Shown here: piece by piece, positions 20,561 through 45,691 of the stretch
Layout of the letters: each line of letters begins with the position of its first letter
Numbering within the stretch: position 1 is the stretch's first letter
IMG/VR virus record: IMGVR_UViG_3300011339_000564
Span: 14,318 to 78,317 of that record
From: a virus
Lineage: Duplodnaviria > Heunggongvirae > Uroviricota > Caudoviricetes
Length of the DNA stretch: 64,000 nucleotides
Reading direction: 5' to 3' (one strand)
Notes under the pieces: model-generated
What the model was told of the DNA's origin: nothing
The model's database searches: none
Seen by the model: the letters and a program-made list of their open reading frames with translations, nothing else
Program-made: the position numbers and the translations under genes

Positions 20561-20566
20561 GCACAG

Positions 20567-21211: not shown

Positions 21212-21478
21212 ATGTCAGATTATAACAGAACCTTTAACGGTGAGGCAAAAATTAAACTAACTCAACTAGTAAATGAGGGCATGACAGTCCTACATGAGAT
21301 TGATACATTGAATGGTGGATTGAATGACACTATTAAAGCAGTCGCAGAAGAACTTGAAATCAAGGCTTCTACTTTGAAGAAAGCAATTAAAATTGCTCAC
21401 AAAGCAAGTCTCGGTCAGACTAACAAAGACCACGATGAACTCAACACTATCTTGGAAACTGTGGGCAAAACACTTTGA
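21212..21478 (+). CDS. hypothetical protein (88 aa)
   Basis: Strong SD (AAGGAG) and ORF. Confidence 0.5.
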   Translation: MSDYNRTFNGEAKIKLTQLVNEGMTVLHEIDTLNGGLNDTIKAVAEELEIKASTLKKAIKIAHKASLGQTNKDHDELNTILETVGKTL

Positions 21479-24993: not shown

Positions 24994-25382
24994 TAGACTA
25001 TATACATGGTGGCGAGTATCTTAATGTTGTTAGTAACAAAGGTGCTCAGCCTTATATCAATATGAGTAGTACTCAGCCCATGATTGGTGCATTGTCTTAT
25101 GACCATAGTAGTCAACATATGAAAGTATATGATGGTAATGGGTGGATGACTATTGGCGGTGGCAGTGCTACTGTCAATCTAGCACCAAATGCTATCAATA
25201 TTTTAAAGTGGGCTGAACAGAAAATGCTAGAAGAAGCCGAGCGCAACAAATTAGCAGAAACAACCCCCGCTATTAGAGATTTGATGGACCAGATAAAAGA
25301 AAAAGAAGAACAGATAAAAATGGTCATGACTTTAATTAAAAGTACTGGTAATGATGCAATTAAACCCTCAATGGTACCCTAA
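24990..25382 (+). CDS. hypothetical protein (130 aa)
   Basis: ORF with overlapping stop/start codons. Confidence 0.5.
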   Translation: MIDYIHGGEYLNVVSNKGAQPYINMSSTQPMIGALSYDHSSQHMKVYDGNGWMTIGGGSATVNLAPNAINILKWAEQKMLEEAERNKLAETTPAIRDLMDQIKEKEEQIKMVMTLIKSTGNDAIKPSMVP

Positions 25383-26935
25383 TGGAACAAGATAATCTAT
25401 CAGCAAAACAAAACCCAGAGTGGGCATTGTTCTTACCCGCAGTTAGTAGTTTTTATATTAGTGGTTTGGGTAAGCAACGTAAAGGTGAGGAGTACTTTGA
25501 TAAGGCTCGTATCCCTACTCAGTTCAACGGTGATGTTGAGAAATTAAATTTCTTAAACAGTAGTGAAGGTCTCTATTATTATAAATGGGGCTTGTACAGT
25601 GCTGGTCACGCTAACTTAGATACTACTAAAGACGATGCTAGTGAATCAATCATTAGAGAACGTGAAGAAGGTACATTTATGTTGGGTGACAGTGGTGGAT
25701 TTCAGATTCTTAAAGGTCAATGGCCAGCAGACTGGAAAGATCCTAACTGCCCACGTGCTATGATTAAGCGTAAAGCTGTGTTGAATTGGATGGATACATA
25801 TATGGATTATGGTATGTGTTTAGATATCCCAAGTCAATCACTAACAACGTTTGGCATGAAAGATAAGAATGGTAATAGTCTGCATGGTATCAGTACTATT
25901 GAAGAAGCTATTACTGCCACTCACATTAACAACGAATACTTTATTAAGAATCGTAATGGGAAATGTAAGTTCTTAAATGTACTTCAAGGTCGTAATCATG
26001 GTCAGTCGGAAGACTGGTACAATGAAATGAAGAAGTACTGTGATCCAAACGTATATCCGGACAATCATTTCAATGGCTGGGCATTCGGTGGTCAGAACAA
26101 GATTGATGTACACTTGATGTTAACACGTATGGTTGATATTATCCATGATGGATTGTTGGTAGAAGGTAAACATGATTTGATTCATTGTTTGGGTACAAGT
26201 ATCTTAGAGTATGCGGTATTGTTTACTGATATTCAAAAAGCTATACGTAAATATCATAACTCAAAACTTCAGATTACATTTGACTGTGCTAGTCCATTTT
26301 ATAGTGCGGCTAAAGGATTAGCATATTTCAATACTAACATTGAGCATAATAAAAAATGGTCATACAGTATGGAAAAGACTGCTGAAAAGAAAAGTTATGC
26401 TAATGATACACGTAAATACCGTGATGCTGTGTTAGCAGAAGGCATCCATAAACTCTTTACAGATAGTCCAGTTACTGATAAACTACTACTTAAGGACATG
26501 TGTTATCGTGGTCAAGGGTTCATAGGACAACATGGTAAAGAAACTAAAACTAGTTGGGATACATTAAGTTACACATTGATTCAAAGTCATAATGTTTGGA
26601 TGCATATGAATGCAGTTCAAGAGGCTAATCGTCAATATGAAACAGGTATTACTCCTAAAATGCTTATTCATAAATTTGAAGGTAGTAAGTTTTTTGGTGA
26701 AATAGTTGATGAAATTTTCTCAAAGAAAACTAAACAAGAAGCTATTGACTTGATTGATTATCATCGTAGTTATTGGATGCAATTTCAATCAGGTAGTCAG
26801 GGTATTAGTGGTAAGCGTACAGTTAATGCTATGACAATGTTTGACCAATTATTTGAAGTAAATACAGATGAACCGGAAGTTGATGAAGTCATTGAGGACA
26901 GTGATGATGAAATTTTCAAAGTACTAGGAGAATAA
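25382..26935 (+). CDS. dpdA: DpdA-like DNA transglycosylase (TGT / tRNA-guanine transglycosylase superfamily)
   Basis: FMLGDSGGFQ matches the TGT catalytic-Asp motif (DSGGFQ). ITFDCASPF matches the TGT second catalytic Asp block (MFDCVxPT). No CxCxxC zinc site, as in many phage DpdAs. Confidence 0.7.
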   Translation: MEQDNLSAKQNPEWALFLPAVSSFYISGLGKQRKGEEYFDKARIPTQFNGDVEKLNFLNSSEGLYYYKWGLYSAGHANLDTTKDDASESIIREREEGTFMLGDSGGFQILKGQWPADWKDPNCPRAMIKRKAVLNWMDTYMDYGMCLDIPSQSLTTFGMKDKNGNSLHGISTIEEAITATHINNEYFIKNRNGKCKFLNVLQGRNHGQSEDWYNEMKKYCDPNVYPDNHFNGWAFGGQNKIDVHLMLTRMVDIIHDGLLVEGKHDLIHCLGTSILEYAVLFTDIQKAIRKYHNSKLQITFDCASPFYSAAKGLAYFNTNIEHNKKWSYSMEKTAEKKSYANDTRKYRDAVLAEGIHKLFTDSPVTDKLLLKDMCYRGQGFIGQHGKETKTSWDTLSYTLIQSHNVWMHMNAVQEANRQYETGITPKMLIHKFEGSKFFGEIVDEIFSKKTKQEAIDLIDYHRSYWMQFQSGSQGISGKRTVNAMTMFDQLFEVNTDEPEVDEVIEDSDDEIFKVLGE

Positions 26936-26936
26936 T

Positions 26937-27146
26937 ATGCCATATAAAAGCCGTATTAAAACATTAGAAGAATCACATAGATTAGTAGAAAATCAACTTT
27001 TTCAATTAGAAAAATCAAATGGTGATCCTGAAAAAATTAAAAAGTTGAGAGAGGCTAAGGAAAAGTATTTCACTGAATTACGTGCAATGAATCGGGCTCA
27101 ATGGGATCATGACCATGAAACTGTAGATTTGAACGATGACCGATGA
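26937..27146 (+). CDS. hypothetical small protein (69 aa)
   Basis: ORF with SD and overlap. Confidence 0.45.
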   Translation: MPYKSRIKTLEESHRLVENQLFQLEKSNGDPEKIKKLREAKEKYFTELRAMNRAQWDHDHETVDLNDDR

Positions 27147-27711
27147 TATTAAATTAATTCCCAATATACTAAAACCAGAGGTAGAGTGGGATATTAATAA
27201 ACGAGTTATTGTTATTGATAACGCAATTAGCCCGGATATGTGTGATAGTATTATTAATTTTGCAACTGATAGAGTAGCAAAAGGAGTAAACAAATATCCA
27301 CATGTATTTGGTATTAGTTTTCATTCATGTCTACTTCAGTTAGAACATGAAGTTCATCAATTGTTGCAACCAATATGGCAACAATCAATTAATCAATTGG
27401 GATTTGATATTGATTTCGTTGAACCATATGAAGTTAAAAAGTATACTTCTAAAGATTTCTTTGGTAAACACGTAGATAATTACTACAGTTTGACCAAAGA
27501 CATAGACAGAAAGATAACAATGAGTGTACAATTGACTGACAAATCAGAATATACTGGTGGTGAGCTATTAGTGTTAGGTAGAGACATGGGTGCTAAGTCT
27601 AAAGGTAGCGTCACTGTGTTTCCTAGCATTTTTTCACATGAAGTAAAACCCATTACTTTTGGTACACGATGGTCATTAATAAGTTGGGCTTGGGGCCCTT
27701 ATTGGAAATAA
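27136..27711 (+). CDS. 2OG-Fe(II) oxygenase-like protein
   Basis: HVDN (HxD) plus a distal SHEV...R (second His/Arg), spaced as in prolyl-hydroxylase-type dioxygenases. Confidence 0.5.
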   Translation: MTDDIKLIPNILKPEVEWDINKRVIVIDNAISPDMCDSIINFATDRVAKGVNKYPHVFGISFHSCLLQLEHEVHQLLQPIWQQSINQLGFDIDFVEPYEVKKYTSKDFFGKHVDNYYSLTKDIDRKITMSVQLTDKSEYTGGELLVLGRDMGAKSKGSVTVFPSIFSHEVKPITFGTRWSLISWAWGPYWK

Positions 27712-27712
27712 C

Positions 27713-28165
27713 ATGGAACAACATATTCAAGCAGAAACAGAAAAACGAGTACGCATTAAGCATCATGCAAAGCGTATGATTTTCGTAACATTTCAAAAAG
27801 AGGGTATTCATATGTACCCGGCGGCGGCAACAGATCCAGCACTCGCAACGGGTGATGAATATGATGTTCGCTTTTTAGGAACTCCACATCGTCACATCTT
27901 TCACTTTAACGTGGCGATTGAAGTATTTCACAACGACAGGGATATTGAATTCATTCAATTTAAACGCTGGTTAGAGAATCTCTATAAAGGCGGTACACTT
28001 GAATTGAATTACAAGAGTTGTGAAATGATTAGTGATGACCTCTATGAAGTTATTGCTACTCGCTATCCCGATCGTAACATTGAGATTACCGTCAGTGAAG
28101 ATGGTGAGAACGGTGCTACGATTTATTACAACACAATTAGACCTTATCTTTCAACCGCTATTTAA
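27713..28165 (+). CDS. hypothetical protein (150 aa)
   Basis: ORF. Confidence 0.5.
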   Translation: MEQHIQAETEKRVRIKHHAKRMIFVTFQKEGIHMYPAAATDPALATGDEYDVRFLGTPHRHIFHFNVAIEVFHNDRDIEFIQFKRWLENLYKGGTLELNYKSCEMISDDLYEVIATRYPDRNIEITVSEDGENGATIYYNTIRPYLSTAI

Positions 28166-28177
28166 AGGATTATCAAA

Positions 28178-28384
28178 ATGGCAAAACCAACATTTCAAAC
28201 TAACCCACGTGTTCATCAAATATTTGAGGACTTGGAAAAGTATCTTGAATTCTGTCAAGAGTATGGATATAAGTATAATGAGGCAGACCTCTATGACCAA
28301 CGCAGTTATGTGTTTCGTCAGTTTGCAAAATGCATGACAGGTAAGCCTGCAAAAAATCAATGGACAGAACACTCACGTCCATGA
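28178..28384 (+). CDS. hypothetical small protein (68 aa)
   Basis: AAGGA SD lies upstream. Confidence 0.4.
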   Translation: MAKPTFQTNPRVHQIFEDLEKYLEFCQEYGYKYNEADLYDQRSYVFRQFAKCMTGKPAKNQWTEHSRP

Positions 28385-29133
28385 AGATAGTATTAGTAAC
28401 TGGTGGATTTGATCCATTACACAGCGGTCATATTGAATATTTCAAAGCCGCAAAACAACTCGGTGTCAAGTTAGTTGTCGGGGTAAACAGTGATGCATGG
28501 TTGGCTCGTAAAAAGGGCCAACCTTTTATGCCTAGCATTGAGCGTATGTCAATAATTGAAAATTTAAAAATGGTAGATCATTGTGTTATCTTTAATGATG
28601 ATGATGGTTCTAGTATTGAAGCTATCAATAATGTAAAGATGATGTATCCTGATTCTGAAATCATCTTTGCTAATGGAGGGGATAGAACATCAGCCAACAT
28701 TCCAGAAATGATCTTTGATGATGTAGAATTTGTTTTTGGTGTAGGTGGCGAGAATAAAATGAACAGTAGTTCATGGATACTACGTGAATGGAAACAACCT
28801 AAAACATTGCGGCAATGGGGTTATTATCGTATACTACATGATGTGCCCGGGACTAAAGTAAAAGAACTAACAGTAGAATCTGGAAAGAGTTTGAGTTTAC
28901 AACGACACAAACATAGAGCAGAATACTGGCATGTATCAGAGGGAAGATGTGCAGTAGAACAAAGAATGCCTAATGGCTATCAACTACCTACTCTAGAATT
29001 AGATACACTAAGTCAAATAGTTATTCCTATGAATGATTGGCATAGGCTATACAATCCGTTTGATGTCCCATGTAGAATTATTGAAGTTCAATATGGTACT
29101 ATGTGCGAAGAAGAAGATATAGAACGCAAATGA
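28360..29133 (+). CDS. bifunctional-looking cytidylyltransferase-fold nucleotidyltransferase with a C-terminal cupin (PMI type II-like) domain
   Basis: VLVTGGFDPLHSGHIEYF (HxGH). C-terminal QRHKHRAEYWHVSEGRCAVE matches the cupin motif of mannose-6-P isomerase/GMP domains. Confidence 0.6.
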   Translation: MDRTLTSMKIVLVTGGFDPLHSGHIEYFKAAKQLGVKLVVGVNSDAWLARKKGQPFMPSIERMSIIENLKMVDHCVIFNDDDGSSIEAINNVKMMYPDSEIIFANGGDRTSANIPEMIFDDVEFVFGVGGENKMNSSSWILREWKQPKTLRQWGYYRILHDVPGTKVKELTVESGKSLSLQRHKHRAEYWHVSEGRCAVEQRMPNGYQLPTLELDTLSQIVIPMNDWHRLYNPFDVPCRIIEVQYGTMCEEEDIERK

Positions 29134-29858
29134 ATCGTGCTATCTGTGCCCCGTGCGGTGGTTTAATGAATCATGTCAGATGGTTAACATTAATGTCATC
29201 TGAATTTAAACTTCCTTTTAAAGGTAAGTTAGAATTTATGAAGGGTGTTTACGCTACCAACAGATCGCCATTTGTATGGTTAAAAAATGAATATTTTTAT
29301 AGGGAACGACCTTTTATAAAGGATTTGGTATTTGGAACTCATCACATTGAAGACTGCCTAACATTAGAAAGTCCTAGAAAAATTTTAATATTGGTTCCTT
29401 CCCCTGAATTAAGTTTCACCCATTATTTAAAGTTTAATCCATCATTGAATGGATTATTAAAACTACGAATCAATCAGCCCTACCTTACAGTAGAAGATAT
29501 AAAAAATCTGTATTTGCTTGGCATTTCGGATCACAATTACCGTAATAAGTTGCATGATACCTCAACTAATGATATAATTACTTCAAATATTGATAAATTA
29601 TATACTAATAGAGAATTAGATGTGGACACGTATCGTACTATAACTGATTTTTTTGAGATATCAAATGAATACAACTTAGCAAATGAAGTTCACAATATGT
29701 GGTTTGATTTACAAGAACATGGTAAAAAATTAATGCTAACACTCTCAGAAAACGCAAAAGATGTAGAGAATTATTGGAGATTGAATCATATTGAAGCAAT
29801 CAACCAATCTGATTATAATATTGCACTTAAACTTATTAAAGAGACATACGGAGAATAA
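29130..29858 (+). CDS. hypothetical protein (242 aa from the ATG at 29130)
   Basis: ORF. Internal ATG chosen to give an ATGA overlap with the previous stop. Confidence 0.45.
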   Translation: MNRAICAPCGGLMNHVRWLTLMSSEFKLPFKGKLEFMKGVYATNRSPFVWLKNEYFYRERPFIKDLVFGTHHIEDCLTLESPRKILILVPSPELSFTHYLKFNPSLNGLLKLRINQPYLTVEDIKNLYLLGISDHNYRNKLHDTSTNDIITSNIDKLYTNRELDVDTYRTITDFFEISNEYNLANEVHNMWFDLQEHGKKLMLTLSENAKDVENYWRLNHIEAINQSDYNIALKLIKETYGE

Positions 29859-31058
29859 ATGAAAACATTATATTATATGGGACTAGAACCCTACAAAGCA
29901 CGTTACACTCTACAGTTACAAGAGTGGAATGAACGGGTCTTTAAACAACGTGGTATTAACTATGTCATTGTACCCGGTGAAACACTAACTAATGACCAAG
30001 CTATTGTAACTGGTCAAGTACTAGATGCACATGGTCGTACATACTTTGGTATGAGTCAACTTATGAATCTAGTTAAGATGATGAAGCAAGGTGAAGTAGG
30101 TGCAGGTGATATCGTATACTTTGAAGATATGTTTCAGCCGGGCATTGAGTCATTGCCATACATTATGAAACAGATTCCGATCACAAGTCGTCCTAAGATT
30201 TTTGTTCGCTGTTTAGCACAAAGTATTGACCCAGATGACTTTGTTCATGTCTGGGGTATGAGTGAATTCATGGGTCACTATGAGAAGATGGTTGATTCGT
30301 TTGTTGATGGTGTGCTTGCTAGTAACGAAGAAATGGTAATGCACATGAAGATTGCGGGTTGGAAAGCTCCTATCTATAATATATCAGGTCTAGCATTTGG
30401 TAAAGATGAAGTTCGTAGTCGTATTAATAATAATATTAAACCCTTTGATGAACGTAAAATGCGTATTGCTTTTAGTGCAAGATGGGACCAAGAGAAACAA
30501 CCTGACTTCTACATGGATGTGATTGAAGAATTCTTTAATCGGTATGGTGAGAAGGATCGTCACGGTATATATCGTGGTGTAGAATTTTGTGTATTCAGTG
30601 GTAGCAAATTAAAAAGCAATAACGATAGTTATATGAAACGCACACACGACTTTCAAGGTCGTGGATTGTTGACAGTTTATGAAGACTTGGACAAGAATGC
30701 ATATTATGAATTATTAAATGATACCAGAGTATTGTTTAATTGTGCATTACAAGATTGGGTAAGTAATACAGTTAGTGAAGCAGATAGTTTGGGTTGTAAT
30801 GTGTTGTATCCAGCATATCGCAGTTTTCCAGAAACGTTTGCAAACGACTATACAAGAATGTATGCGCCCTGGTCAGTTGAAGATGCGGCAATAAAGTTGT
30901 ATAATATGTTACATCAGCCACATATAAATCAAGGAAAGATTAGTGATTGGACTGATGGTACTATTGATAGAATCTGTGATATCTTAGAAGGTAAGGGACA
31001 ACAATGGTTGCGTATGGACAAAGATTATCGCAAACATACTAGAGAAAATAAATACTAA
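29859..31058 (+). CDS. hypothetical protein (399 aa)
   Basis: Long ORF. Confidence 0.5.
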   Translation: MKTLYYMGLEPYKARYTLQLQEWNERVFKQRGINYVIVPGETLTNDQAIVTGQVLDAHGRTYFGMSQLMNLVKMMKQGEVGAGDIVYFEDMFQPGIESLPYIMKQIPITSRPKIFVRCLAQSIDPDDFVHVWGMSEFMGHYEKMVDSFVDGVLASNEEMVMHMKIAGWKAPIYNISGLAFGKDEVRSRINNNIKPFDERKMRIAFSARWDQEKQPDFYMDVIEEFFNRYGEKDRHGIYRGVEFCVFSGSKLKSNNDSYMKRTHDFQGRGLLTVYEDLDKNAYYELLNDTRVLFNCALQDWVSNTVSEADSLGCNVLYPAYRSFPETFANDYTRMYAPWSVEDAAIKLYNMLHQPHINQGKISDWTDGTIDRICDILEGKGQQWLRMDKDYRKHTRENKY

Positions 31059-31070
31059 AAGGAGAAAATT

Positions 31071-31760
31071 ATGTTTGAAACAACTTATACAGATAATGTA
31101 AATTACCGTTCTGCTAGCGAAATTAACTCAGCAATGGGCCGTGTTTATGGTCACATGAGTCTAGCTGTCATTGTATCAATGTTAGTTAGCTATTTTGTAG
31201 GCTCTAGTCCAGAGTTACTACAATTCTTTTTTACAGGTGTATTGAAATGGATTGTGATCTTTGCCCCATTAGCGGCAATATTTGGTGTTGCTATGGTCCT
31301 AGGTAACAACCCTAGTAAGGGCGTAGCACAACTATGTTTACATGGATTTGCCGCACTAATGGGATTAAGTTTTGCTACAATCTTTGCTGTATTCAACATG
31401 GGTAGTATTGTAAGCTCATTTATGGGAGCAGCCATATTGTTTGGCGTTATGAGTGGCTATGGTTATTTTACTAAACAAAGTTTAGACAGTCTTGGCAAGT
31501 TTATGTTTGTTGGATTGATTGCAATAGTTATTGCCAGCATTGTCAATATCTTTATCGGCAGTACCGTAATGCAAATGGTTATCAGTGCGTTGGCTATCAT
31601 TATCTTTTTAGGATTGACTGCTTACGACACACAAAAGATTCGTGAAGAATTAAGTCTAGAAACCAGTGATAGTGCAGAAGTACGCGGTGCATTAACATTG
31701 TACATGGACTTCATTAATTTGTTTATTAACCTCTTACAACTATTTGGTGATAGGAAATAA
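31071..31760 (+). CDS. Bax-inhibitor-1/YccA-family integral membrane protein
   Basis: Seven predicted TM segments, about 229 aa. N-terminal AMGRVYGHMSLAVIVSML resembles the BI-1/YccA signature. Confidence 0.5.
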   Translation: MFETTYTDNVNYRSASEINSAMGRVYGHMSLAVIVSMLVSYFVGSSPELLQFFFTGVLKWIVIFAPLAAIFGVAMVLGNNPSKGVAQLCLHGFAALMGLSFATIFAVFNMGSIVSSFMGAAILFGVMSGYGYFTKQSLDSLGKFMFVGLIAIVIASIVNIFIGSTVMQMVISALAIIIFLGLTAYDTQKIREELSLETSDSAEVRGALTLYMDFINLFINLLQLFGDRK

Positions 31761-31762
31761 TC

Positions 31763-32179
31763 ATGGCAACATGGATATTAAAAACACTGCACAAAAAGAG
31801 TGCATATGAAAGACAGCATTGGTACAAAGATGGTAAAGAAATCATCCGTGAAGAAGGTTACCGTTGGGGCACATTTTACTGTGAAAGTGATGAGAAACCT
31901 GATATTGACCTAACTAATGATGATGGTTATGAAATTGGTCAAGATGAGTATGAGTGGGAGCTTGATAGCCTCGATGACGGTTGTTGGGCTGATTGGGAAT
32001 TCCCCGATGACATGAGTGAAGAAGAACAAGAAGAAATTCAAAATGCTTGGGATGAAAATTATTTTGAAGGCATGGAAGAATTAGGTTGGAGTTGCGATGA
32101 TACAGATTATATCTTGCAAGGTCCGTTAGAATTATCAGATGAAGATGGTAATGTAGTAGGTTCTGGTGATACAGAATAA
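31763..32179 (+). CDS. acidic small protein, 'WEF' paralog family member 1
   Basis: CWADWEFPDDMSEEEQEEIQ. Paralogous to 32575-33060 and 63727-end. Confidence 0.5.
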   Translation: MATWILKTLHKKSAYERQHWYKDGKEIIREEGYRWGTFYCESDEKPDIDLTNDDGYEIGQDEYEWELDSLDDGCWADWEFPDDMSEEEQEEIQNAWDENYFEGMEELGWSCDDTDYILQGPLELSDEDGNVVGSGDTE

Positions 32180-32202
32180 GTTCATTTCAAATAGGAGAAA
32201 AC

Positions 32203-32397
32203 ATGAGCGCACAAAATGATATCGAAACAAGTTTGGCAGCATACAACGCTGAAAACGATAAGTTTAACAAAGGAAATGCAGCCGCAGGTACACGTGCCCG
32301 CAAAGCATTAGCAGAACTAGCTAAAGCAGTTAAGGCTCGCCGTAACGAAATTACAGCAGAAAAAGCCGCACGTGCTGAAGCAAAGGTAAAGGCTTAA
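32203..32397 (+). CDS. Lys/Ala-rich histone H1-like DNA-binding protein (64 aa)
   Basis: AAGTRARKALAELAKAVKARRNEITAEKAARAEAKVKA resembles bacterial H1-like nucleoid proteins. SD AGGAGAAAA lies upstream. Confidence 0.45.
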   Translation: MSAQNDIETSLAAYNAENDKFNKGNAAAGTRARKALAELAKAVKARRNEITAEKAARAEAKVKA

Positions 32398-32574
32398 TAT
32401 GACCTGCAGAGGCTATGATAGCAGGGCAATTAAATTGCCAAAAGAGATAAAATGCAGAGCGGCAACTATTTTAGATAATCATCAGCGAGGTGAATTTATA
32501 CGTAGTTGGGTAGCAATATATAAAGAGGCCGCACATTCAAGGGGCTCCAATAAAAAACATTCTAAGGATTAATA

Positions 32575-33060
32575 ATGGCTAATGTCTACTGTATTAAACC
32601 ACTAGAGAAGAAAAGTATTAGCTGGCGGGTAGAAATGTACCGTGAGAATAGTGACGGATCTTTCAGTTGGTTTAATATGGAAGAATTATATCGTTGGGGT
32701 CAGGGTTTTATTGAAGAAGACCTTGATTGCAACCTGCCTTGGAAAGGTTCTAACTCTGCACATTGCAAAACAGATGCAGGTTGGGGATGTGAGTTTGAAG
32801 ATTCTATCAGTATTGACTGGGAATTTTCAGACGATATCACAGAATTGGAACAACAAGAAATTAAAGAATCATACTATGATGGTGGCGCGGCTTGGTTGTT
32901 TGACGGTGAACATGATTGGCAAACTGAAGATGATTATGTCATAGTCTTGGCGCCCTTTAGTGTTGACTATGCTAGTGACAACGGTGATATAATCACTGAG
33001 AACGTAGAATTAAAAGAACGTCCACCATTAGACCCAAATGCGGCATGGCCTTTTTCTTAA
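32575..33060 (+). CDS. acidic small protein, 'WEF' paralog family member 2
   Basis: SIDWEFSDDITELEQQEIKE. Confidence 0.5.
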   Translation: MANVYCIKPLEKKSISWRVEMYRENSDGSFSWFNMEELYRWGQGFIEEDLDCNLPWKGSNSAHCKTDAGWGCEFEDSISIDWEFSDDITELEQQEIKESYYDGGAAWLFDGEHDWQTEDDYVIVLAPFSVDYASDNGDIITENVELKERPPLDPNAAWPFS

Positions 33061-33144
33061 ACAAACACACACTAAGATAAATAAAGATGTAACACAAAGG
33101 TTACAAAATTTCAAAACAAAAACCATCACAAAGGAAGGTTATCT

Positions 33145-33825
33145 ATGAGTTATAATAAAACAAAAACAGATCCAGAGTTGGGTCAACGAGTACACGAACA
33201 TCTAGTTAAGATGGGTGTTGAAACTCCCACTAATCCAAACAACTATGACCGTAAAGAAAAGATAGATCATATTGAAGCGCATTTTACACACATTATGCGT
33301 ATCTTGGGTCTTGACTTAACAGACGATAGTTTGATTGAAACCCCTAAGCGTGTTGCCAAGATGTATGTCAACGAAATCTTTTGGGGACTTGACTATGACG
33401 CATTCCCTAAATGTACAACAGTTGACAACAAGATGCAATACAACGAAATGGTTGTAGAGCGTAATGTTAACGTTCAATCTAACTGCGAACATCATTTTGT
33501 AGTCATCGATGGACTAGCTACTGTAGCTTATGTCCCTAAACAAAAAGTTCTAGGGCTTAGTAAGATAAACCGTATCGTAGAATATTTTAGCAAAAGGCCT
33601 CAAATCCAAGAGAGGTTAACAGAGCAAATTTTTCACACCTTACAGTTCATCCTTGAAACAGAAGATGTTGCAGTTATGATTGATGCACAACACTATTGTG
33701 TAAAATCACGTGGTGTAGAAGATACGGGATCTAGTACTGTTACTTGTCGTTTAGGTGGCGGTTTCAAATCAGATCCTGCGGCAAGACAAGAGTTTTTACA
33801 GATTGCTAACAAAGGTTGCAAATGA
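33145..33825 (+). CDS. folE: GTP cyclohydrolase I (FolE)
   Basis: NCEHHFVVI (CEHH zinc site) and overall FolE-like length; SD AAGGAAGG. Confidence 0.85.
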   Translation: MSYNKTKTDPELGQRVHEHLVKMGVETPTNPNNYDRKEKIDHIEAHFTHIMRILGLDLTDDSLIETPKRVAKMYVNEIFWGLDYDAFPKCTTVDNKMQYNEMVVERNVNVQSNCEHHFVVIDGLATVAYVPKQKVLGLSKINRIVEYFSKRPQIQERLTEQIFHTLQFILETEDVAVMIDAQHYCVKSRGVEDTGSSTVTCRLGGGFKSDPAARQEFLQIANKGCK

Positions 33826-33953
33826 TTATTACAATATTAGTTACAATAGCAGTAATAATAGCTATTGTTATAATGATTGCTACGATGCCAAATGCTAGTA
33901 GATGTAACGGAGACTGCAATCAAGGTCGTAACTGTACTTGTAGGGAGCAATAA
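33822..33953 (+). CDS. tiny hydrophobic peptide (43 aa) with a Cys-rich tail (CNGDCNQGRNCTC); speculative
   Basis: ATGA overlap with the folE stop. The TAA overlaps the next ATG (33953). One TM helix. Confidence 0.3.
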   Translation: MIITILVTIAVIIAIVIMIATMPNASRCNGDCNQGRNCTCREQ

Positions 33954-34171
33954 TGGCACTGATATATAAAGAAGTAGAAGTTGATATTGATCTGAGCGAT
34001 TTTGATACTGACGAATTAGTTGAAGAATTGGAAAACCGTGGCTCAGGTGTTATGGACTACGATGACGGCAAGGAAGTACTACAGTCGATTTACGAAAAAC
34101 GTAGACTTGGACAAGACTATCAGCAAGAACTAGACCAATTAATTTGGTTAGGATTAGGGAGAGTTGTATGA
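33953..34171 (+). CDS. acidic hypothetical protein (72 aa)
   Basis: ORF. Confidence 0.45.
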
Positions 34172-34362
34172 TGAAATTTAAATTAGGTGACATGGTTAAA
34201 AAAGTGTCTGGTTCACAATGGCATGGAAAAGTAGTTGGTACATACTCAACTGAGTTAACGCCTGAAGGATATGCAGTTGAGAGTCATACAGAAAAAGGTT
34301 CTGTACAAATATACCCTGCAAAGGCTCTTGAGTTATGGGAGTTGAATAATGGGATTTCGTAA
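34168..34362 (+). CDS. hypothetical small protein (64 aa)
   Basis: The ATG at 34168 overlaps the previous stop, with AGGGAGAG upstream. Confidence 0.4.
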
Positions 34363-34585
34363 ACAAATGGACTACAATGCAGTACATCATCAAATCTATA
34401 TGAGTGGTGTAGAATTACATAGTAATTACAATGATGGTTACAATCAGTTTGAAATCAAAAAAGATTTACATCGTATCAAGTGGTTGTTAGATGAGATTAT
34501 GGCTGACAGCCCTACATTTGCAGGGGAAGACGAATTCTTAAAAGAACATGAACAAACTAAGATGTGGAGAACTCTTTCAAAATGA
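34349..34585 (+). CDS. hypothetical protein (78 aa)
   Basis: ORF. Confidence 0.45.
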
Positions 34586-35055
34586 TTTTCAATCACATTA
34601 AAAAACTCAAACAAGATGGAAAGAAGATAGGTATTACTTTTAGTACATTCGACCTACTTCACGCAGGTCATATTGCTATGTTAAGTGAAGCAAAAAATCA
34701 TTGTGATTATCTTATTTGTGGATTACAAACTGACCCCACGATTGATCGACCTGAAACAAAGAATAAACCCATTCAAAGTATCGTAGAACGACAGATTCAA
34801 CTTGCGGCTTGCCGCTATGTCGATGAAGTTGTTGTTTATCAAACTGAACAGGACCTTATTGACTTGTTACTTATTCTACCACTAGATGTTCGCATTTTGG
34901 GTGTAGAGTATGCAGATAAAGACTTTACCGGAAGATATGAAGGTAGTGAGCGTGGCATTGAAATTGTATTCAATGGTCGTGACCACAGTTTCAGCAGTAG
35001 TAGTTTACGAAAACGGGTAGCTGATGCCCAGATTATTAACGTTCTTAATAAATAA
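34582..35055 (+). CDS. cytidylyltransferase (TagD/glycerol-3-phosphate cytidylyltransferase-like)
   Basis: IGITFSTFDLLHAGHIAMLSEAK closely matches the TagD-type GTFDLLHxGH motif. About 158 aa. Confidence 0.7.
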   Translation: MIFNHIKKLKQDGKKIGITFSTFDLLHAGHIAMLSEAKNHCDYLICGLQTDPTIDRPETKNKPIQSIVERQIQLAACRYVDEVVVYQTEQDLIDLLLILPLDVRILGVEYADKDFTGRYEGSERGIEIVFNGRDHSFSSSSLRKRVADAQIINVLNK

Positions 35056-35084
35056 CTATAGCGGTCTTTGGACATCATCCCGCT

Positions 35085-35112
35085 TTACAAATTCTGCTGC
35101 CTATGCTATAAT
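35085..35112 (+). promoter_or_regulatory. sigma70-like promoter TTTACA-16-TATAAT upstream of queD
   Basis: Hexamers found; AGGAGAAA SD and the ATG at 35130 follow. Confidence 0.45.
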
Positions 35113-35129
35113 CAACATAGGAGAAATTC

Positions 35130-35612
35130 ATGGCAAACAAAAAATTCTTTTCAACAAAGACATACAGACAAATAGGTCCTGTCGCTTATCGTCAATGGCG
35201 TGCTGACAGTCATTGTAACTTAATTCATGGCTATGCTATGAGTTTTCACTTTGAGTTTGAGGCTGATACGTTAGACGCACGTAACTGGGTAACTGACTTC
35301 GGTGGATTACGACCTCTCAAAGATAAACTAGAAGAATGGTTTGACCATACATTACTAGTTGCACAAGATGACCCAATGCGTGAACATCTATTAGAACTAG
35401 GTCGTTTAAAGCTAGCTAAAATTACAGAAGTAGAACGTACTGGGTGTGAAGGTATTTCTGACTTTTTATATGAATACATTAACACAATTTTTTTGCCTAA
35501 CTGCGGTAGTGAAGAAGCTAAACGTGTATGGTGCTGTAGAGTAGAAGTCCGCGAGACTGATAGTAACATGGCAGGACGTAGTGGTCATAGGGAAGATAGA
35601 GAGTTTGAATAA
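35130..35612 (+). CDS. queD: 6-carboxy-5,6,7,8-tetrahydropterin synthase (QueD)
   Basis: SHCNLIHGYAMSF (the Cx3HGH zinc/catalytic motif of QueD/PTPS). About 160 aa. Confidence 0.7.
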   Translation: MANKKFFSTKTYRQIGPVAYRQWRADSHCNLIHGYAMSFHFEFEADTLDARNWVTDFGGLRPLKDKLEEWFDHTLLVAQDDPMREHLLELGRLKLAKITEVERTGCEGISDFLYEYINTIFLPNCGSEEAKRVWCCRVEVRETDSNMAGRSGHREDREFE

Positions 35613-36235
35613 TGTTAGAAACAATTTGCGATACATTAGTTGAAGCATATAAACGCAACTGGATTACCAGTCGTGATGGCAATGTAAGTATTCGTCATCA
35701 TGATCGGGATCATTTTTACATCACACCCAGTGGTGTGCGTAAGCAGACAATGCAACCGGATCAGTTTAAGAAGATTCGTATTGTTGGTAGTATGTTATGG
35801 GAAGAGCAACCATACACTGATATCAGTGCTAATCTTAAACCGTCAGGTGAGCTACCACTACACCTCGGACTACAGCGAAAAATGGGACAGCACAATAATG
35901 ATGTTAGAGTAGTAGTACATTTACATCCCACATACTGTGTTGCCGCTATGCACCGCGGCATTGAGTTGAGTAGTCTGGCTAATGACTTTCCTGAACTCAG
36001 TCGCTATACTAGCGTGGCACCCAATGTGGGTGATGTGCCTCCTATTAGCCAGGAACTTGCAGACCGCTGTCATGAAAATTTGGGACTAGATAAGAATGGT
36101 ACTATTGCTTATGACATTGTAGGTATCAAAGGTCACGGTGTGGTCGCTATAGATACTAGCCCATGGAGGGCTTTTGAACATATTGAACGATTAGAACATA
36201 TTTGTCAAATCGTATTAGCATCAGGGAAATATTAA
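35612..36235 (+). CDS. class II aldolase/adducin-domain-like protein
   Basis: SRDGNVSIR...FYITPSG resembles the fuculose-phosphate aldolase N-terminal signature (GNxSxR...TPSG). Confidence 0.5.
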   Translation: MLETICDTLVEAYKRNWITSRDGNVSIRHHDRDHFYITPSGVRKQTMQPDQFKKIRIVGSMLWEEQPYTDISANLKPSGELPLHLGLQRKMGQHNNDVRVVVHLHPTYCVAAMHRGIELSSLANDFPELSRYTSVAPNVGDVPPISQELADRCHENLGLDKNGTIAYDIVGIKGHGVVAIDTSPWRAFEHIERLEHICQIVLASGKY

Positions 36236-36236
36236 A

Positions 36237-36650
36237 ATGTTAGACTGTATAATTATAGGTGATAGCATTGCAGTTGGTACAGCTATGGCTCGTCCAGAGT
36301 GTGTAAGTTATTCAAAAGGCGGCTGGAACAGTTGGCAATGGAACAAGGATTACTTAGCCAAAGCCTCTGCTCAACCTGCTCAAACTATAATCATTAGTCT
36401 TGGAGCCAACGACCACAAGGGTGTTAAGACTGAGCTTGAGTTACGTAAAATGCGAGAAGCAGTTAAGGGCCAGCGTGTGTTTTGGATCGATCCAGGTCAA
36501 GACCGTAAACCTATTCCACACGATGCAATTATTCGCATTGCTAAAGAATATGGTGATACAGTATTGCCTAGGCCAAAGAATCATATGAGTGCTGACGGAG
36601 TACATCCAACTGGTCGAGGTTATAAGATTTTAGGAGAGATGGCAAAATGA
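36237..36650 (+). CDS. short SGNH/GDSL-like hydrolase
   Basis: IIIGDSIAVG (GDS block I). SLGANDH (GxND block III). DGVHP (DxxH block V). Confidence 0.5.
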   Translation: MLDCIIIGDSIAVGTAMARPECVSYSKGGWNSWQWNKDYLAKASAQPAQTIIISLGANDHKGVKTELELRKMREAVKGQRVFWIDPGQDRKPIPHDAIIRIAKEYGDTVLPRPKNHMSADGVHPTGRGYKILGEMAK

Positions 36651-37282
36651 GTTATATTGTAGGATCATTACCTCCTATTAAGTGTTGGATAAAACGTGAA
36701 TTTCTTTACAACTTTGAAAAAGGTCACGGAGAATTAGAACCTGCCATATGGGTAAGTCTTAAAGCATTACGTGGACAAGTGTTTCGTATTGAATCATTAT
36801 TACCCAATTACGGAGCACTCTACGATAAACTGCCCATTCATGCCTATGTATGGCAAGACAACTACACAGGCAATCTACCTATAGATACTTTACAACTCTG
36901 GGACTGCATGGGTTATCGCTTTACTATCATTGAAAAAATAGGTTTACGTAATCTAGGTGTTAAGTTCTTGGGCAAAGATAAAGAATGGCATCACGGAACT
37001 TATTTATTTACAGTAGATTTTTGTGCTGATGGAATGGATGTAGATACAGGTTTTACTGAAGTAGCAGAAGAACACAAGTCGTTTAATTTTATTAGATTAG
37101 AAAATGGACAGTTTGCTTGTCAACCCAATAATCGATGTTTGTGGTACGACCAAAGTTTGATTTCAGGTACAGTGAAATTTCCAGACTTTAAAGCCGCACA
37201 GACCATATTTACAGTAGATGGTACTCGCAAGTGGAGTGCAGGAGATGATTGGTTTTATTCTATTGAGGAAAAAAATGAATAG
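36647..37282 (+). CDS. hypothetical protein (211 aa) inside the que module
   Basis: ORF with overlaps on both sides. Confidence 0.5.
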   Translation: MSYIVGSLPPIKCWIKREFLYNFEKGHGELEPAIWVSLKALRGQVFRIESLLPNYGALYDKLPIHAYVWQDNYTGNLPIDTLQLWDCMGYRFTIIEKIGLRNLGVKFLGKDKEWHHGTYLFTVDFCADGMDVDTGFTEVAEEHKSFNFIRLENGQFACQPNNRCLWYDQSLISGTVKFPDFKAAQTIFTVDGTRKWSAGDDWFYSIEEKNE

Positions 37283-37466
37283 TTTAGAAAAAATATGGGC
37301 TAGAGCAACTGGTCATTTAATGGGTAACACTGATGATGATAGACCCGATGTACCTATTCTTACTTTACGAGAAGCAAGAATTGCATTGTTCCTAAAAACT
37401 TTCTGGATTATACTACATGTGATAACATGTTGTTTCATCATAGCAAATACATTACGTCATTGGTAA
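37275..37466 (+). CDS. small membrane protein (63 aa from the internal ATG)
   Basis: Hydrophobic FWIILHVITCCFIIANTL. The ATG at 37275 overlaps the upstream stop. Confidence 0.35.
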   Translation: MNSLEKIWARATGHLMGNTDDDRPDVPILTLREARIALFLKTFWIILHVITCCFIIANTLRHW

Positions 37467-37469
37467 AAT

Positions 37470-37667
37470 ATGAACAAAAAAATTACAGAACTATGGGAAC
37501 AGGCCGCTCAACGAGATGACTTACTAGACGAAAAACGGTATGAGCATTTTGCTGAATTATTAATTAGAGATTGTGCAAAACAAGTTAATCATCTGGCTAA
37601 ACAAGGTGGCGGAACTTGGGGCGAAGTCATTCTAGAAAACTACAATATAAGTGTATATAAAAAATGA
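37470..37667 (+). CDS. member of the small 'FAELIVREC' paralog family (65 aa)
   Basis: HFAELLIRDCAKQV is shared with six other small ORFs in the window. Confidence 0.45.
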   Translation: MNKKITELWEQAAQRDDLLDEKRYEHFAELLIRDCAKQVNHLAKQGGGTWGEVILENYNISVYKK

Positions 37668-38512
37668 GTCATTTAAAAGTATCAGAATTATTTTACAGTA
37701 TCCAGGGAGAAGGTCGCTATATGGGAGTGCCAAGTATTTTCCTAAGAACATATGGATGCAATTTTACATGCGGTGGCTTCGGTATGCCTAAGGGAGAAAT
37801 GAGTAATGAGAGAGATGTTATCGCAATTAAAGCAGAAGATTATACAGATTATAAATCCTTACCACTTGTCAGTACTGGATGTGATAGTTACGCATCTTGG
37901 GACCCTCGCTTTAAACATCTTAGTCCTGTTATCTCTACCGATTCTATTGCTGACAGTATTATGGATATACTTCCTCACAAGCGTTGGATGGATGAACATC
38001 TTGTTATTACAGGTGGTGAACCTTTGCTTGGATGGCAAAGAGCGTATCCAGACTTACTTTCAAACGAGAAAATGAGAGCATTGAAAGAGATTACATTTGA
38101 AACTAATGGCACACAAGAACTAAGTAAAGACCTTACTAACTATCTTCATCAATGGAAGATCAGCCGTGAAAATAACGCACTTACATTCAGTGTGAGTCCT
38201 AAACTTAGTATCAGCGGTGAGAAGTGGGAAGAAGCAATATGTCCACAAGTTGTTCGTCAATATGAAAGTGTTGGCTTTGTATATCTTAAATTTGTTATTG
38301 CTACTAAAGAAGATGCGATTGAGGCAGATAAAGCAGTTAAAGAATTTCGTACAGCTGGATTCAGAGGTCCAATATACTTCATGCCATGCGGTGGTGTAGA
38401 AAGTATCTATAATTTAAATGCTAGAAATGTTGCTATTGAAGCAATGAATCGTGGCTATCGCTATAGTGATAGATTACAGGTGCCTCTATTTAAAAATGAA
38501 TGGGGGACATAA
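37664..38512 (+). CDS. queE: QueE-like 7-carboxy-7-deazaguanine synthase (radical SAM) with atypical cysteine spacing
   Basis: YSIQGEGRYMGVPSIFLRTYGCNFTC matches the QueE N-terminus (QGEG...GCNxxC). The third cluster Cys is displaced by a long insertion. Confidence 0.65.
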   Translation: MSHLKVSELFYSIQGEGRYMGVPSIFLRTYGCNFTCGGFGMPKGEMSNERDVIAIKAEDYTDYKSLPLVSTGCDSYASWDPRFKHLSPVISTDSIADSIMDILPHKRWMDEHLVITGGEPLLGWQRAYPDLLSNEKMRALKEITFETNGTQELSKDLTNYLHQWKISRENNALTFSVSPKLSISGEKWEEAICPQVVRQYESVGFVYLKFVIATKEDAIEADKAVKEFRTAGFRGPIYFMPCGGVESIYNLNARNVAIEAMNRGYRYSDRLQVPLFKNEWGT

Positions 38513-38945: not shown

Positions 38946-39125
38946 ATGTATGAATTAAGATATCTTGTCCGAAACGGTTGGGATGGACCTGAACAAGTGT
39001 TACAATATAGAACTCAACATGAAGTAACAGACTATAGTGGCACAGATCCTAAAACAGGTGGATTCATTAGAAAAATAGAATGGACTGAATGGAAGTATGT
39101 CCCCACCGTAGATGAAACAAAATGA
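38946..39125 (+). CDS. hypothetical small protein (59 aa; below the ORF-track threshold)
   Basis: ORF with an ATGA overlap to the next gene (39122). Confidence 0.35.
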   Translation: MYELRYLVRNGWDGPEQVLQYRTQHEVTDYSGTDPKTGGFIRKIEWTEWKYVPTVDETK

Positions 39126-42444: not shown

Positions 42445-42623
42445 TTCTTGCGACCCCTAAACCCTACTGGCATCTGCAAATCATTAACGGGAAACATTGC
42501 TTTGAACCACTCATCAGTACCAGGCTTAGCAGTAATTTTGCTACGGTCTATAGGCACAGAAGATGTAGGTTTTCCTCTATGGTCGGTAACTCCTGCAAGT
42601 CTTTTAAGTTGATCTATGTTCAT
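42441..42623 (-). CDS. hypothetical small protein (60 aa)
   Basis: ORF that fills the gap, with overlaps on both ends. Confidence 0.35.
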   Translation of the reverse strand: MNIDQLKRLAGVTDHRGKPTSSVPIDRSKITAKPGTDEWFKAMFPVNDLQMPVGFRGRKK

Positions 42624-45662: not shown

Positions 45663-45691
45663 TTGACTTTATTGCGTAGTTGTGCTACACT
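45663..45691 (+). promoter_or_regulatory. sigma70-like promoter TTGACT-17-TACACT in the divergent intergenic region
   Basis: Hexamers with 17-nt spacing upstream of uvdE (ATG 45721). Confidence 0.4.

Follow-up and report, generated by a model that had tools for sequence, protein, structure and literature searches.

A putative DpdA3/DpdL-type 7-deazaguanine DNA-modification module in an uncultured jumbo myovirus, with dDG as its predicted product

Introduction

A phage gene set comprising DpdA3, DpdL, FolE, QueD, and QueE, with no QueC, has been catalogued in 21 genomes, including those of Pseudomonas phage PA5oct and of Cellulophaga phage phiST (Hutinet et al., 2023, NAR 51:9214; PMC10516641). 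In phiST DNA, dDG (2'-deoxy-7-deazaguanine) replaces all G (100%) and dCDG is absent (PMC10516641). For PA5oct, Data S1 of the same study lists QCG76197.1 as DpdA3 and QCG76199.1 as DpdL, together with FolE, QueD, and QueE and without QueC (PMC10516641), and PA5oct DNA resists restriction enzymes with G-containing sites. Experiments have established that the DpdA2 proteins of Vibrio phages nt-1 and VH7D place preQ0, preQ1, and CDG in DNA; unlike the window studied here, both phages encode QueC, accompanied by ArcS2 in nt-1 and by QueF and DpdM in VH7D, and less than 0.1% of their G is modified.

Here, a 64,000-nucleotide stretch of DNA (the window) was analyzed from an uncultured jumbo myovirus that is kin to PA5oct, Phosso, and the RaK2/Atu_ph07 group. 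It carries a gene set predicted to swap guanine in the phage's own DNA for 7-deazaguanine, and we place at roughly 60% the probability that this is a DpdA3/DpdL-type module with dDG as its product. The core reading, a deazaguanine DNA-modification set around a DpdA-like transglycosylase and without QueC, is supported by fold, by profile homology to the proven DpdA2, by synteny, and by the catalogued DpdA3 homolog of PA5oct. The finding holds up, although it is not novel: the gene set had already been catalogued, and a first-pass annotation overstated its novelty.

Results

The order DNA polymerase, clamp, DpdA, DpdL, FolE, QueD, and QueE (Table 1) is conserved in PA5oct, where the module likewise sits beside the DNA polymerase and sliding clamp, in Phosso, and in metagenome relatives (87% and ~55–60% identity), and clustering of the module genes extends over many phages.

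Table 1. Module and accessory genes in the window.
Feature	Position	Strand	Basis
Divergent phage DpdA, putative DNA guanine transglycosylase (DpdA3-catalogued clade; no TGT zinc site)	25382..26935	+	
DpdL, QueD paralog, proposed 7-carboxy-7-deazaguanine decarboxylase	27713..28165	+	LxxxHRHxF signature, homology
Nucleotidyltransferase-cupin fusion (mannose-6-P isomerase C-terminal type), accessory	28360..29133	+	PF01467 51.5 bits, PF01050 75.7 bits
GT4-type (GT-B fold) glycosyltransferase, conserved companion of DpdA and DpdL	29859..31058	+	
FolE, GTP cyclohydrolase I, opening the pathway	33145..33825	+	NF006824, PF01227, CEHH
Nucleotidyltransferase, cytidylyltransferase-like; conserved accessory gene lying between FolE and QueD	34564..35055	+	PF01467, TIGR02199
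QueD-like 6-carboxytetrahydropterin synthase, Cx3HGY variant	35130..35612	+	PF01242, phrog_2389
QueE-like radical-SAM 7-carboxy-7-deazaguanine synthase	37664..38512	+	phrog_2076, PDB sequence matches
Conserved accessory; second glycosyltransferase-like protein, matching group 1 weakly	39122..40471	+	Pfam, homology
NAD-dependent sugar-nucleotide epimerase/dehydratase, accessory	40468..41298	+	PF01370 111.8 bits, phrog_540

The 517-aa DpdA-like protein contains both Asp blocks on which the first-pass annotation had placed it in the TGT superfamily (DSGGFQ at D103 and FDC at D301), but it matches neither the Pfam TGT profile nor any other library profile. Placing it there required structure prediction and profile-profile comparison, which reveal a TGT/DpdA fold with the catalytic Asp pair aligned. 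In alignment with E. coli Tgt, D103, D148, and D301 fall on its catalytic and substrate Asp residues; D103, S104, G106, D148, H268, and D301 are invariant across the 60 diverse homologs compared. The top profile-profile match, running from the DSGG motif through the (Y/F)D(S/C) motif, is DpdA2 (98.5%, E 2.8e-15), and the best structural match is a DNA-specific DpdA. Compared with phage DpdA2, however, the protein shows no pairwise BLAST similarity and differs in the regions beyond the barrel core, and its sequence identity to Salmonella Montevideo DpdA (PDB 7UI4), bTGT, QTRT1/2, and ArcTGT is 10–14%. In contrast to bacterial DpdA and TGTs, its family does not present the conserved CxCxxC...H zinc site of TGTs, there is no Pfam PF01702 match, and the predicted substrate is DG, not preQ0 or preQ1; neither a DpdB partner nor the dpd restriction genes of the bacterial systems accompany it. 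A catalogued homolog, PA5oct DpdA3, shares 35% identity over ~450 residues (~80–88% of the query). The DpdA3 label is nevertheless uncertain, because by profile the protein only weakly resembles phiST DpdA3, the founding member (61%), and its similarity to RHph_I1_18 DpdA3 is negligible (10.6%). The protein is also about twice as long as phiST DpdA3 (259 aa).

The first-pass calls of a GTP cyclohydrolase I with CEHH and of a QueE-like radical-SAM enzyme were both borne out. FolE scores 330.6 bits against NF006824 (cut-off 202) and 207 bits against PF01227, with CEHH at residue 114. The QueE-like ORF scores 181 bits against phrog_2076 and ~41–48 bits against five NCBIfam QueE models, under their cut-offs; its PDB sequence matches are limited to three solved QueE enzymes (6nhl, 4njg, and 5tgs), and it shares 47% identity with BUCT-ZZ01 QueE and 31% with PA5oct QueE (QCG76203.1). 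A PTPS/QueD-like ORF is likewise present (PF01242, 56.7 bits, cut-off 22.4; phrog_2389, 142 bits), but its motif reads CNLIHGY (Cx3HGY) and not the reported Cx3HGH. The same CxxxHGY variant occurs in the QueD of phiST, Acidovorax phage ACP17, and BUCT-ZZ01; identity is 70% to ACP17 QueD and 34% to phiST QueD, and only one of the three canonical zinc histidines is kept. An R67-type DHFR sits between the FolE and QueD-like genes.

The reported lack of QueC was confirmed within the 64-kb window, the genomes of related phages reaching ~350 kb. A phmmer --max search of all 549 six-frame ORFs (40 aa or longer), with QueC of Vibrio phage nt-1 as the query, gave no match better than E 1.7, and Pfam scans of ~70 ORFs, among them almost all plausible ones of 120 aa or longer, found neither QueC nor QueF. 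The sole SGGxDS PP-loop ORF in the window (20549–21163) is, as proposed, TilS-like: its product has the TilS N-domain (TIGR02432, 126 bits; cut-off 93.6). The whole PA5oct genome contains no QueC-like ORF and no TGT-like ORF besides DpdA3.

The "missing QueC" is explained by DpdL, a decarboxylase-like gene encoded in the window two genes downstream of the transglycosylase. Its product carries LGTPHRHIF at residue 55, which fits the DpdL signature LxxxHRHxF (PMC10516641), and shows identities (tblastn or BLASTP) of 68% to Phosso, 57% to ACP17, 57% to PA5oct, and 35% to phiST DpdL (E 4e-14). In a 12-sequence alignment, H59, H61, F63, H73, E79, S102-C103-E104, E129, and D130 are invariant.

Discussion

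We infer each enzymatic step, the base that results, and when it is inserted, as follows. FolE would convert GTP to dihydroneopterin triphosphate, from which the QueD-like enzyme would make 6-carboxytetrahydropterin and the QueE-like radical-SAM enzyme 7-carboxy-7-deazaguanine (CDG). Without QueC, DpdL, a zinc-type T-fold QueD paralog and proposed decarboxylase, would decarboxylate the free base CDG to 7-deazaguanine, and the DpdA-family transglycosylase would swap it for DNA guanine post-replication, yielding 2'-deoxy-7-deazaguanosine (dDG). The predicted product is dDG, not dCDG, because the same gene set (a DpdA-family transglycosylase, DpdL, FolE, Cx3HGY QueD, and QueE, with no QueC) is found in phiST, with 100% dDG. 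In phage DNA, dDG would block restriction enzymes that read guanine N7.

The first-pass annotation, whose gene list had overlooked the DpdL homolog lying between the genes it named, reasoned instead that the pathway would stop at CDG, giving dCDG in DNA, or that host QueC would supply preQ0, giving dPreQ0, dADG, or dG+. The window does lack QueC, VH7D DpdA2 can insert CDG into the DNA of an E. coli queC mutant, albeit inefficiently, and dCDG is present in Sulfolobus virus STSV2. Both outcomes are nonetheless quite unlikely in view of the DpdL gene two genes downstream of the transglycosylase, the presence of dDG and absence of dCDG in phiST, and the lack of QueC in all 27 DpdL-encoding genomes of Data S1 (Hutinet et al., 2023; PMC10516641); the conservation of a dedicated CDG-consuming paralog also argues against CDG as an end point. 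The third option offered there, a different downstream chemistry, stands, although that chemistry was described in 2023.

Complete replacement in DpdA3-type phages would be easily explained if the free base passed through a phosphoribosyltransferase, a kinase, and ribonucleotide reductase to the polymerase, leaving the DpdA-like protein a secondary or salvage role. A phosphoribosyltransferase lies inside the clusters of relatives L020 and L021 and of cyanophage BUCT-ZZ01, and a HIT-family gene in those of L020 and L021. This nucleotide-pool route is very unlikely, given that Pfam detects no phosphoribosyltransferase in the window, that the DpdA-like gene is a constant member of the module with both catalytic Asp residues intact, and that the model published for every known case is post-replicative insertion. 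It is extremely improbable that the set serves something other than DNA modification, either making a pterin or its glycoside through FolE, a PTPS-like enzyme, and a GT4 akin to BH4 glucosyltransferase, or providing queuosine precursors for tRNA. The loss of zinc histidines in the QueD-like protein and the neighboring DHFR would suit such a role, but pterin glycoside synthesis has no use for QueE, DpdL, or a DpdA-fold protein, the tRNA route would lack QueC, QueF, QueA, and a bacterial-type TGT, the top structural match is DNA-specific, and PA5oct DNA withstands restriction at sites that contain G.

Alternatively, the final base might carry further decoration. The phiST cluster includes MazG and a kinase-like ATPase but lacks a glycosyltransferase, whereas the lineage studied here also carries the GT4, another glycosyltransferase, nucleotidyltransferases, and an epimerase. 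A plain dDG product leaves these conserved glycosyltransferase and sugar-nucleotide genes unexplained. DpdA and DpdL could install a deazaguanine handle that GT4 extends, on the free base or on DNA, with donors from the second glycosyltransferase, the nucleotidyltransferases, and the epimerase. The GT4-like gene is clustered with DpdA and/or DpdL, mostly directly adjacent and in varying order, in ~10 phage or contig lineages (ACP17, PA5oct-like phages, Phosso, X1/BUDD, BCSR5, BUCT-ZZ01, L005, L020, L021, and L022), a neighborhood for which we found no earlier report among searchable papers; 18 of 23 phage records with GT4 also encode DpdL. Furthermore, ACP17 DpdA2 plus DpdL and phiST DpdA3 plus DpdL gave no detectable dDG in E. 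coli, and other enzymes may be required according to the authors (PMC10516641). A glycosylated or otherwise decorated 7-deazaguanine is still rather unlikely: C7 of 7-deazaguanine offers no obvious O or N acceptor, phiST, with plain dDG, and RHph_I1_18 encode DpdL without GT4, and phage glycosyltransferase and sugar-nucleotide genes frequently target host surface glycans or virion proteins.

The accessory genes recur in other lineages. In ACP17 (DpdA2 and DpdL), the order DpdA, GT4, DpdL, and QueE is similar to that seen here. The second glycosyltransferase matches Pfam Glyco_trans_1_4 and Glycos_transf_1 at E 5e-4, under cut-offs, is also found in L005, and is 44% identical to the BUCT-ZZ01 glycosyltransferase embedded between FolE and DpdA2. 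The nucleotidyltransferase between FolE and QueD (PF01467, 48 bits; TIGR02199, rfaE domain II, 81 bits, under cut-off) has homologs in L005, L020, and L021 (E 6e-71 to 5e-51), as does the epimerase, and the nucleotidyltransferase-cupin fusion is kept in L005 and in a 99%-identical relative (on a 64,323-bp contig).

A DpdL Homolog in a Deazaguanine Module Lacking QueC

The module at positions 25382-38512, which comprises a DpdA-like transglycosylase of 517 aa, DpdL, FolE and QueD-like and QueE-like enzymes, is an uncultured instance of an already catalogued deazaguanine system. The first-pass annotation was right to interpret these genes as a phage DNA deazaguanine modification, and the four genes it had named are all present where it had placed them, but its gene list, although it described a real system, was incomplete, as it had missed DpdL. 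This protein has been defined as a QueD paralog in which the CxxxHGH motif has turned into LxxxHRHxF, and has been proposed to be a 7-carboxy-7-deazaguanine (CDG) decarboxylase giving 7-deazaguanine (DG) (Hutinet et al., 2023; PMC10516641). Sequence comparison identifies the window ORF as a DpdL homolog with a predicted role as CDG decarboxylase. Within an alignment of 12 DpdL sequences, L55, H59, H61 and F63 are invariant and the ERDxEF, SCE and EDGE blocks are conserved along with the histidines, while the motif arginine is replaced by phenylalanine in the Pseudomonas phage PA5oct only, a substitution likewise noted in the supplement of the original paper (PMC10516641). The window DpdL is 68% identical to a protein of Sinorhizobium phage Phosso, 57% identical to the DpdL of PA5oct and of the Acidovorax phage ACP17 (E 2e-46 for the latter), and 35% identical to those of the Cellulophaga phage phiST (YP_007673448, E 4e-14), phi13:1 and phi19:2, the last three being phages shown to contain the deoxynucleoside of DG (dDG). 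The protein has no match in Pfam at E <= 0.01; its profile aligns with the QueD profile in hhalign at 67% probability (E 5e-5), an alignment that brings the SCE, V.E and His motifs into register, and the T-fold relation of phiST DpdL to QueD has been reported at 99.9% by HHpred (PMC10516641).

The supplementary table of Hutinet et al. (Data S1) lists PA5oct with QCG76197.1 as DpdA3, QCG76199.1 as DpdL, FolE, QueD and QueE, and an empty QueC entry (PMC10516641). Twenty-one genomes in that table combine DpdA3, DpdL, FolE, QueD and QueE without QueC, six further genomes pair DpdL with DpdA1 or DpdA2, and QueC occurs in none of the 27 DpdL genomes (PMC10516641). The most likely pathway is one in which FolE, QueD and QueE would convert GTP into CDG, DpdL would decarboxylate CDG to DG, and the DpdA-family enzyme would exchange guanine in DNA for DG; each of these conversions, like the base that ends up in the DNA, is predicted, while the analysis itself establishes the identity of the genes, the fold and catalytic residues, the synteny and the lack of QueC. 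The first-pass annotation had proposed that the pathway stops at CDG, which is wrong: it overlooked the DpdL homolog, and in phiST DNA dDG replaces all G, with no dCDG, the CDG deoxynucleoside (PMC10516641). Since DpdL would account for the lack of QueC, the absence of this gene does not imply dCDG. Because the system had already been catalogued, the main value of this analysis is corrective, and a literature search for later DpdA subfamilies or glycosylated deazaguanine returned nothing past Hutinet et al. (2023).

Coordinates of features in the window and in related phage or metagenome loci (L-numbers); strand where reported.
Feature	Coordinates	Remarks
Auxiliary genes, as a group	858-3919, 13805-14245, 14238-15515, 16758-17747, 31071-31760, 32203-32397, 42620-43174 (-), 45682-46749	
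Class-I glutamine amidotransferase	17744-18319 (+)	
TilS N-domain-only protein	20549-21163 (+)	204 aa
Family-B DNA polymerase	21475-24183	
DpdA-like transglycosylase	25382-26935 (+)	517 aa
2OG-Fe(II) oxygenase	27136-27711 (+)	
DpdL	27713-28165 (+)	150 aa; phrog_17812, function unassigned; LGTPHRHIF at residues 55-63
GT4-type glycosyltransferase	29859-31058 (+)	
R67-type dihydrofolate reductase	34144-34362 (+)	72 aa; PF06442 78 bits, E 4e-22
Nucleotidyltransferase	34564-35055	
QueD-like	35130-35612 (+)	
Aldolase II, SGNH/GDSL hydrolase, phrog_3704	35612-37282 (+)	phrog_3704 labelled 'ferredoxin'
QueE-like	37664-38512	
Second glycosyltransferase-like gene	39122-40471	
Epimerase	40468-41298	
GT4 homologs	L003:8969-9997, L001:13617-14678, L008:9001-10167	in DpdA/DpdL cluster
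GT4 homologs	L009:7947-9107, L010:7986-9098, L011:6800-7891	in DpdA/DpdL cluster
Phosphoribosyltransferase and HIT-family gene	L020:10524-11445, L021:9873-11254	marine relatives
Phosphoribosyltransferase	L008:4093-4554	entered with L020 and L021; cyanophage BUCT-ZZ01

The claim that the window lacks QueC holds. When the QueC of phage nt-1 was searched with phmmer --max against 549 six-frame ORFs of the window, the best E-value was 1.7, and Pfam scans of about 70 ORFs (nearly every plausible window ORF of at least 120 aa) detected neither QueC nor QueF. In PA5oct, examined over essentially its whole genome, each gene of the module has a counterpart, but neither a QueC-like ORF nor a second TGT-like one was found. 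As the first-pass annotation had also held, the sole PP-loop ATPase of the window is TilS-like: the only ORF with an SGGxDS motif encodes a TilS N-domain protein. The possibility that this protein substitutes for QueC together with the class-I glutamine amidotransferase was considered and rejected, because its score clears the cut-off of the TilS N-domain model, it has no QueC match, it adjoins a tRNA cluster in PA5oct, and it shows no synteny with the module in L005, a metagenome relative with 87% identity. The amidotransferase lies approximately 2 kb upstream of the truncated TilS gene. In PA5oct the same truncated TilS sits beside a tRNA cluster that includes three tRNAs with a CAU anticodon; ARAGORN predicted no tRNA in the window.

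The 517-aa DpdA-like Protein

The 517-aa protein has no family match in Pfam (including the TGT model PF01702), NCBIfam (including the Tgt models), PHROG or the PDB sequences, and a 60-sequence profile of its family retrieved no TGT from the PDB sequences either. With standard library and PDB-sequence searches empty, only fold and profile-profile methods could place it, and none of the genes on record encodes precisely this sequence. The AlphaFold model obtained from the 60-homolog alignment is of high confidence (pLDDT 90, pTM 0.89) and shows the (beta/alpha)8 barrel fold of TGT enzymes, and the best 13 Foldseek matches of this model in the PDB are all tRNA-guanine transglycosylases. Eight residues (S73, D103, S104, G106, D148, P150, H268 and D301) are invariant across 60 diverse homologs, and in the hhalign alignment of the family profile with E. 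coli Tgt (89.8% probability) D103 and D301 align with the catalytic pair D89 and D264, and D148 with the substrate-binding D143. The motif-based guess of the first-pass annotation, that this is a TGT-superfamily protein with both catalytic-Asp blocks, is thus borne out by fold and aligned residues. The CxCxxC...H motif of the structural zinc site is missing from the sequence, and the 60-sequence alignment holds no conserved Cys cluster; among candidate zinc-site residues only H268 is invariant, H403 and C374 being conserved in 82 and 60% of sequences, respectively.

In the standard libraries the protein fails to match TGT or DpdA profiles, which is, taken literally, the outcome that the first-pass annotation had named as a refutation, but its family aligns by hhalign with a profile built from six DpdA2 members at 98.5% (E 2.8e-15), with ACP17 DpdA2 at 96.4% and with the experimentally proven DpdA2 of nt-1 at 94.7%. 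The corresponding figures are 61% (E 8e-5, over 81 columns) for the founding DpdA3 member, CGPG_00065 of phiST, and an uninformative 10.6% for RHph_I1_18 DpdA3 (QIG70629), and pairwise BLASTP against ACP17 DpdA2 and phiST DpdA3 yielded nothing significant. In profile comparisons, the 517-aa clade resembles DpdA2 far more than it does the DpdA3 of phiST or RHph_I1_18. The PA5oct protein catalogued as DpdA3 (QCG76197.1) shares 35% identity with the 517-aa protein (E 4e-72), and FolE, QueD and QueE accompany the 517-aa protein or its homolog, the sole TGT-like gene product there, in the window, PA5oct, Phosso, L005 and the metagenome loci L020 and L021. The 517-aa protein is a predicted phage DpdA of the PA5oct clade, carrying the literature label DpdA3, and DpdA3 as catalogued is heterogeneous. 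The clade may deserve a subfamily label of its own, and the DpdA subfamily scheme may need revising, given that its profile lies nearer to DpdA2 than to phiST DpdA3. Published attempts at guanine exchange with DpdA3 in E. coli failed. Clustering this very large, uncharacterised family at 90% identity gives more than 6,600 clusters, none of which has a name, and at 50% identity it is reduced to 835 representatives. Since Pfam, NCBIfam and PHROG do not detect the clade, although it is very abundant in metagenomes, annotation pipelines probably under-count deazaguanine-modified jumbo phages.

The FolE, QueD-like and QueE-like Genes

The assignment of FolE is unambiguous (NF006824, 330 bits) and the CEHH motif reported by the first-pass annotation is present. 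The QueD assignment stands at the level of the PTPS family (PF01242 at 56.7 bits, cut-off 22.4; phrog_2389 at 142 bits), but the Cx3HGH motif ascribed to it does not: the ORF reads CNLIHGY, with a tyrosine also at the first zinc-His position, and so departs from CxxxHGH with its three zinc histidines, an E. coli QueD sequence serving as the reference in the motif alignment. phiST, ACP17 and BUCT-ZZ01 have QueD proteins with the same Cx3HGY variant, which is evidently compatible with function, since the phiST pathway is fully functional. The QueD proteins that accompany DpdL (window, phiST, ACP17 and BUCT-ZZ01) retain only one of the three canonical zinc histidines: the last has become Tyr and the first Tyr or Phe, whereas DpdL keeps HRH. 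These two putative T-fold paralogs may act jointly. In PA5oct, DpdL is accompanied by two QueD-like ORFs.

The QueE-like enzyme was also correctly recognized, yet it scores below the cut-offs of standard models: five NCBIfam QueE models give approximately 41-48 bits, under cut-offs of 200-300, and Pfam Radical_SAM gives 20.8 bits against 29.5, with phrog_2076 at 181 bits. The ORF has the N-terminal substrate motif of QueE and the radical-SAM cysteines, reading ELFYSIQGEG...LRTYGCNFTC followed by C73 past a 36-residue insert, and its sole PDB sequence matches are three solved QueE enzymes (6nhl, 4njg and 5tgs). Identity to phage QueE proteins ranges from 31 to 47%, the PA5oct QueE listed in Data S1 standing at 31%. 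Between FolE and QueD lies a gene for an R67-type (type II, DfrB-like) dihydrofolate reductase, an unusual type for a phage and one that sits within a pterin/deazapurine cluster; it is kept in a 99%-identical relative.

Insertions and Genomic Setting

The 2OG-Fe(II) oxygenase gene is tightly packed between the DpdA-like gene and DpdL. As a part of the core pathway it can be rejected, for it is missing from both the 99%-identical relative and L005, and represents a strain-level insertion within the module. The block between QueD and QueE encodes a class II aldolase/adducin-family protein, an SGNH/GDSL hydrolase and phrog_3704. Decarboxylases occur within the aldolase II family, but these genes were rejected as an alternative decarboxylase route because they are missing from L005, where QueD abuts QueE; they are lineage-specific inserts.

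The window derives from a T4-like supergroup phage with jumbo relatives. The family-B DNA polymerase encoded in it shares 49% identity with the Phosso enzyme and 44-46% with those of Atu_ph07 and RaK2-like phages, and the contigs that carry its metagenome relatives are 250-360 kb long. A megablast search of INPHARED phages with the 13-kb region gave no DNA-level match. The order of genes is the same in PA5oct, a jumbo phage, with DnaJ and ClpB-like genes followed by DNA polymerase, clamp and the 517-aa gene. The window is rich in auxiliary genes, and those named encode DnaJ, a ClpB-like AAA+ chaperone, ferritin, a 425-aa radical-SAM protein and a TctC-family solute-binding protein, as well as Bax inhibitor-1, an Hc1 histone-like protein, a Fe/Mn superoxide dismutase and a UvdE UV endonuclease.

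Glycosyltransferase and Sugar-Nucleotide Genes

The GT4-type glycosyltransferase is homologous to genes that ACP17 (E 3e-16) and PA5oct (E 2e-8) carry between DpdA and DpdL. Homologs are clustered with DpdA and/or DpdL, mostly adjacent to them, in Phosso, X1/BUDD, BCSR5 and BUCT-ZZ01 (63% identity), and likewise in the metagenome loci L005, L020, L021 and L022, so that the association recurs in about ten phage or contig lineages; DpdL is also present in 18 of the 23 phage records that carry the gene. It is missing from phiST and RHph_I1_18, and no mention of a GT4 companion of DpdA and DpdL was found in those deazaguanine papers that could be searched. The second glycosyltransferase-like gene is 44% identical to a BUCT-ZZ01 gene lying between FolE and DpdA2, and the nucleotidyltransferase and the epimerase are conserved in L005, L020 and L021.

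These genes may encode a missing factor for dDG formation, further decoration of the base, or an unrelated glycan function. In E. coli, neither ACP17 DpdA2 with DpdL nor phiST DpdA3 with DpdL produced detectable dDG (PMC10516641), and the 'other unknown enzymes' invoked after that result have a concrete candidate in the recurrent GT4 and sugar-nucleotide genes. A further possibility is that these genes mark a new glycosylated purine. In the window clade and in ACP17-, PA5oct-, BUCT-ZZ01- and X1-like phages, dDG would then be only an intermediate, to which the GT4 enzyme would add a sugar, with the nucleophilic C7 (by C-glycosylation) or N2 as examples of where it might attach; supplying or extending this sugar would fall to the second glycosyltransferase, the nucleotidyltransferases and the epimerase, and the DNA would come to contain a glycosylated 7-deazapurine, a type of purine hypermodification of which, to our knowledge, no description exists so far. 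We consider this outcome rather unlikely, and treat it as a lower-probability but testable lead. PA5oct DNA resists five restriction enzymes with G-containing sites (PMC12191111), and because this phage is cultured and known to be restriction-resistant, both the dDG and the glycosylation ideas can be tested on it directly.

The deazaguanine cluster of the marine relatives L020 and L021 also contains a phosphoribosyltransferase and a HIT-family gene, and that of the cyanophage BUCT-ZZ01 contains a phosphoribosyltransferase, genes that hint at nucleotide-level handling of the base.
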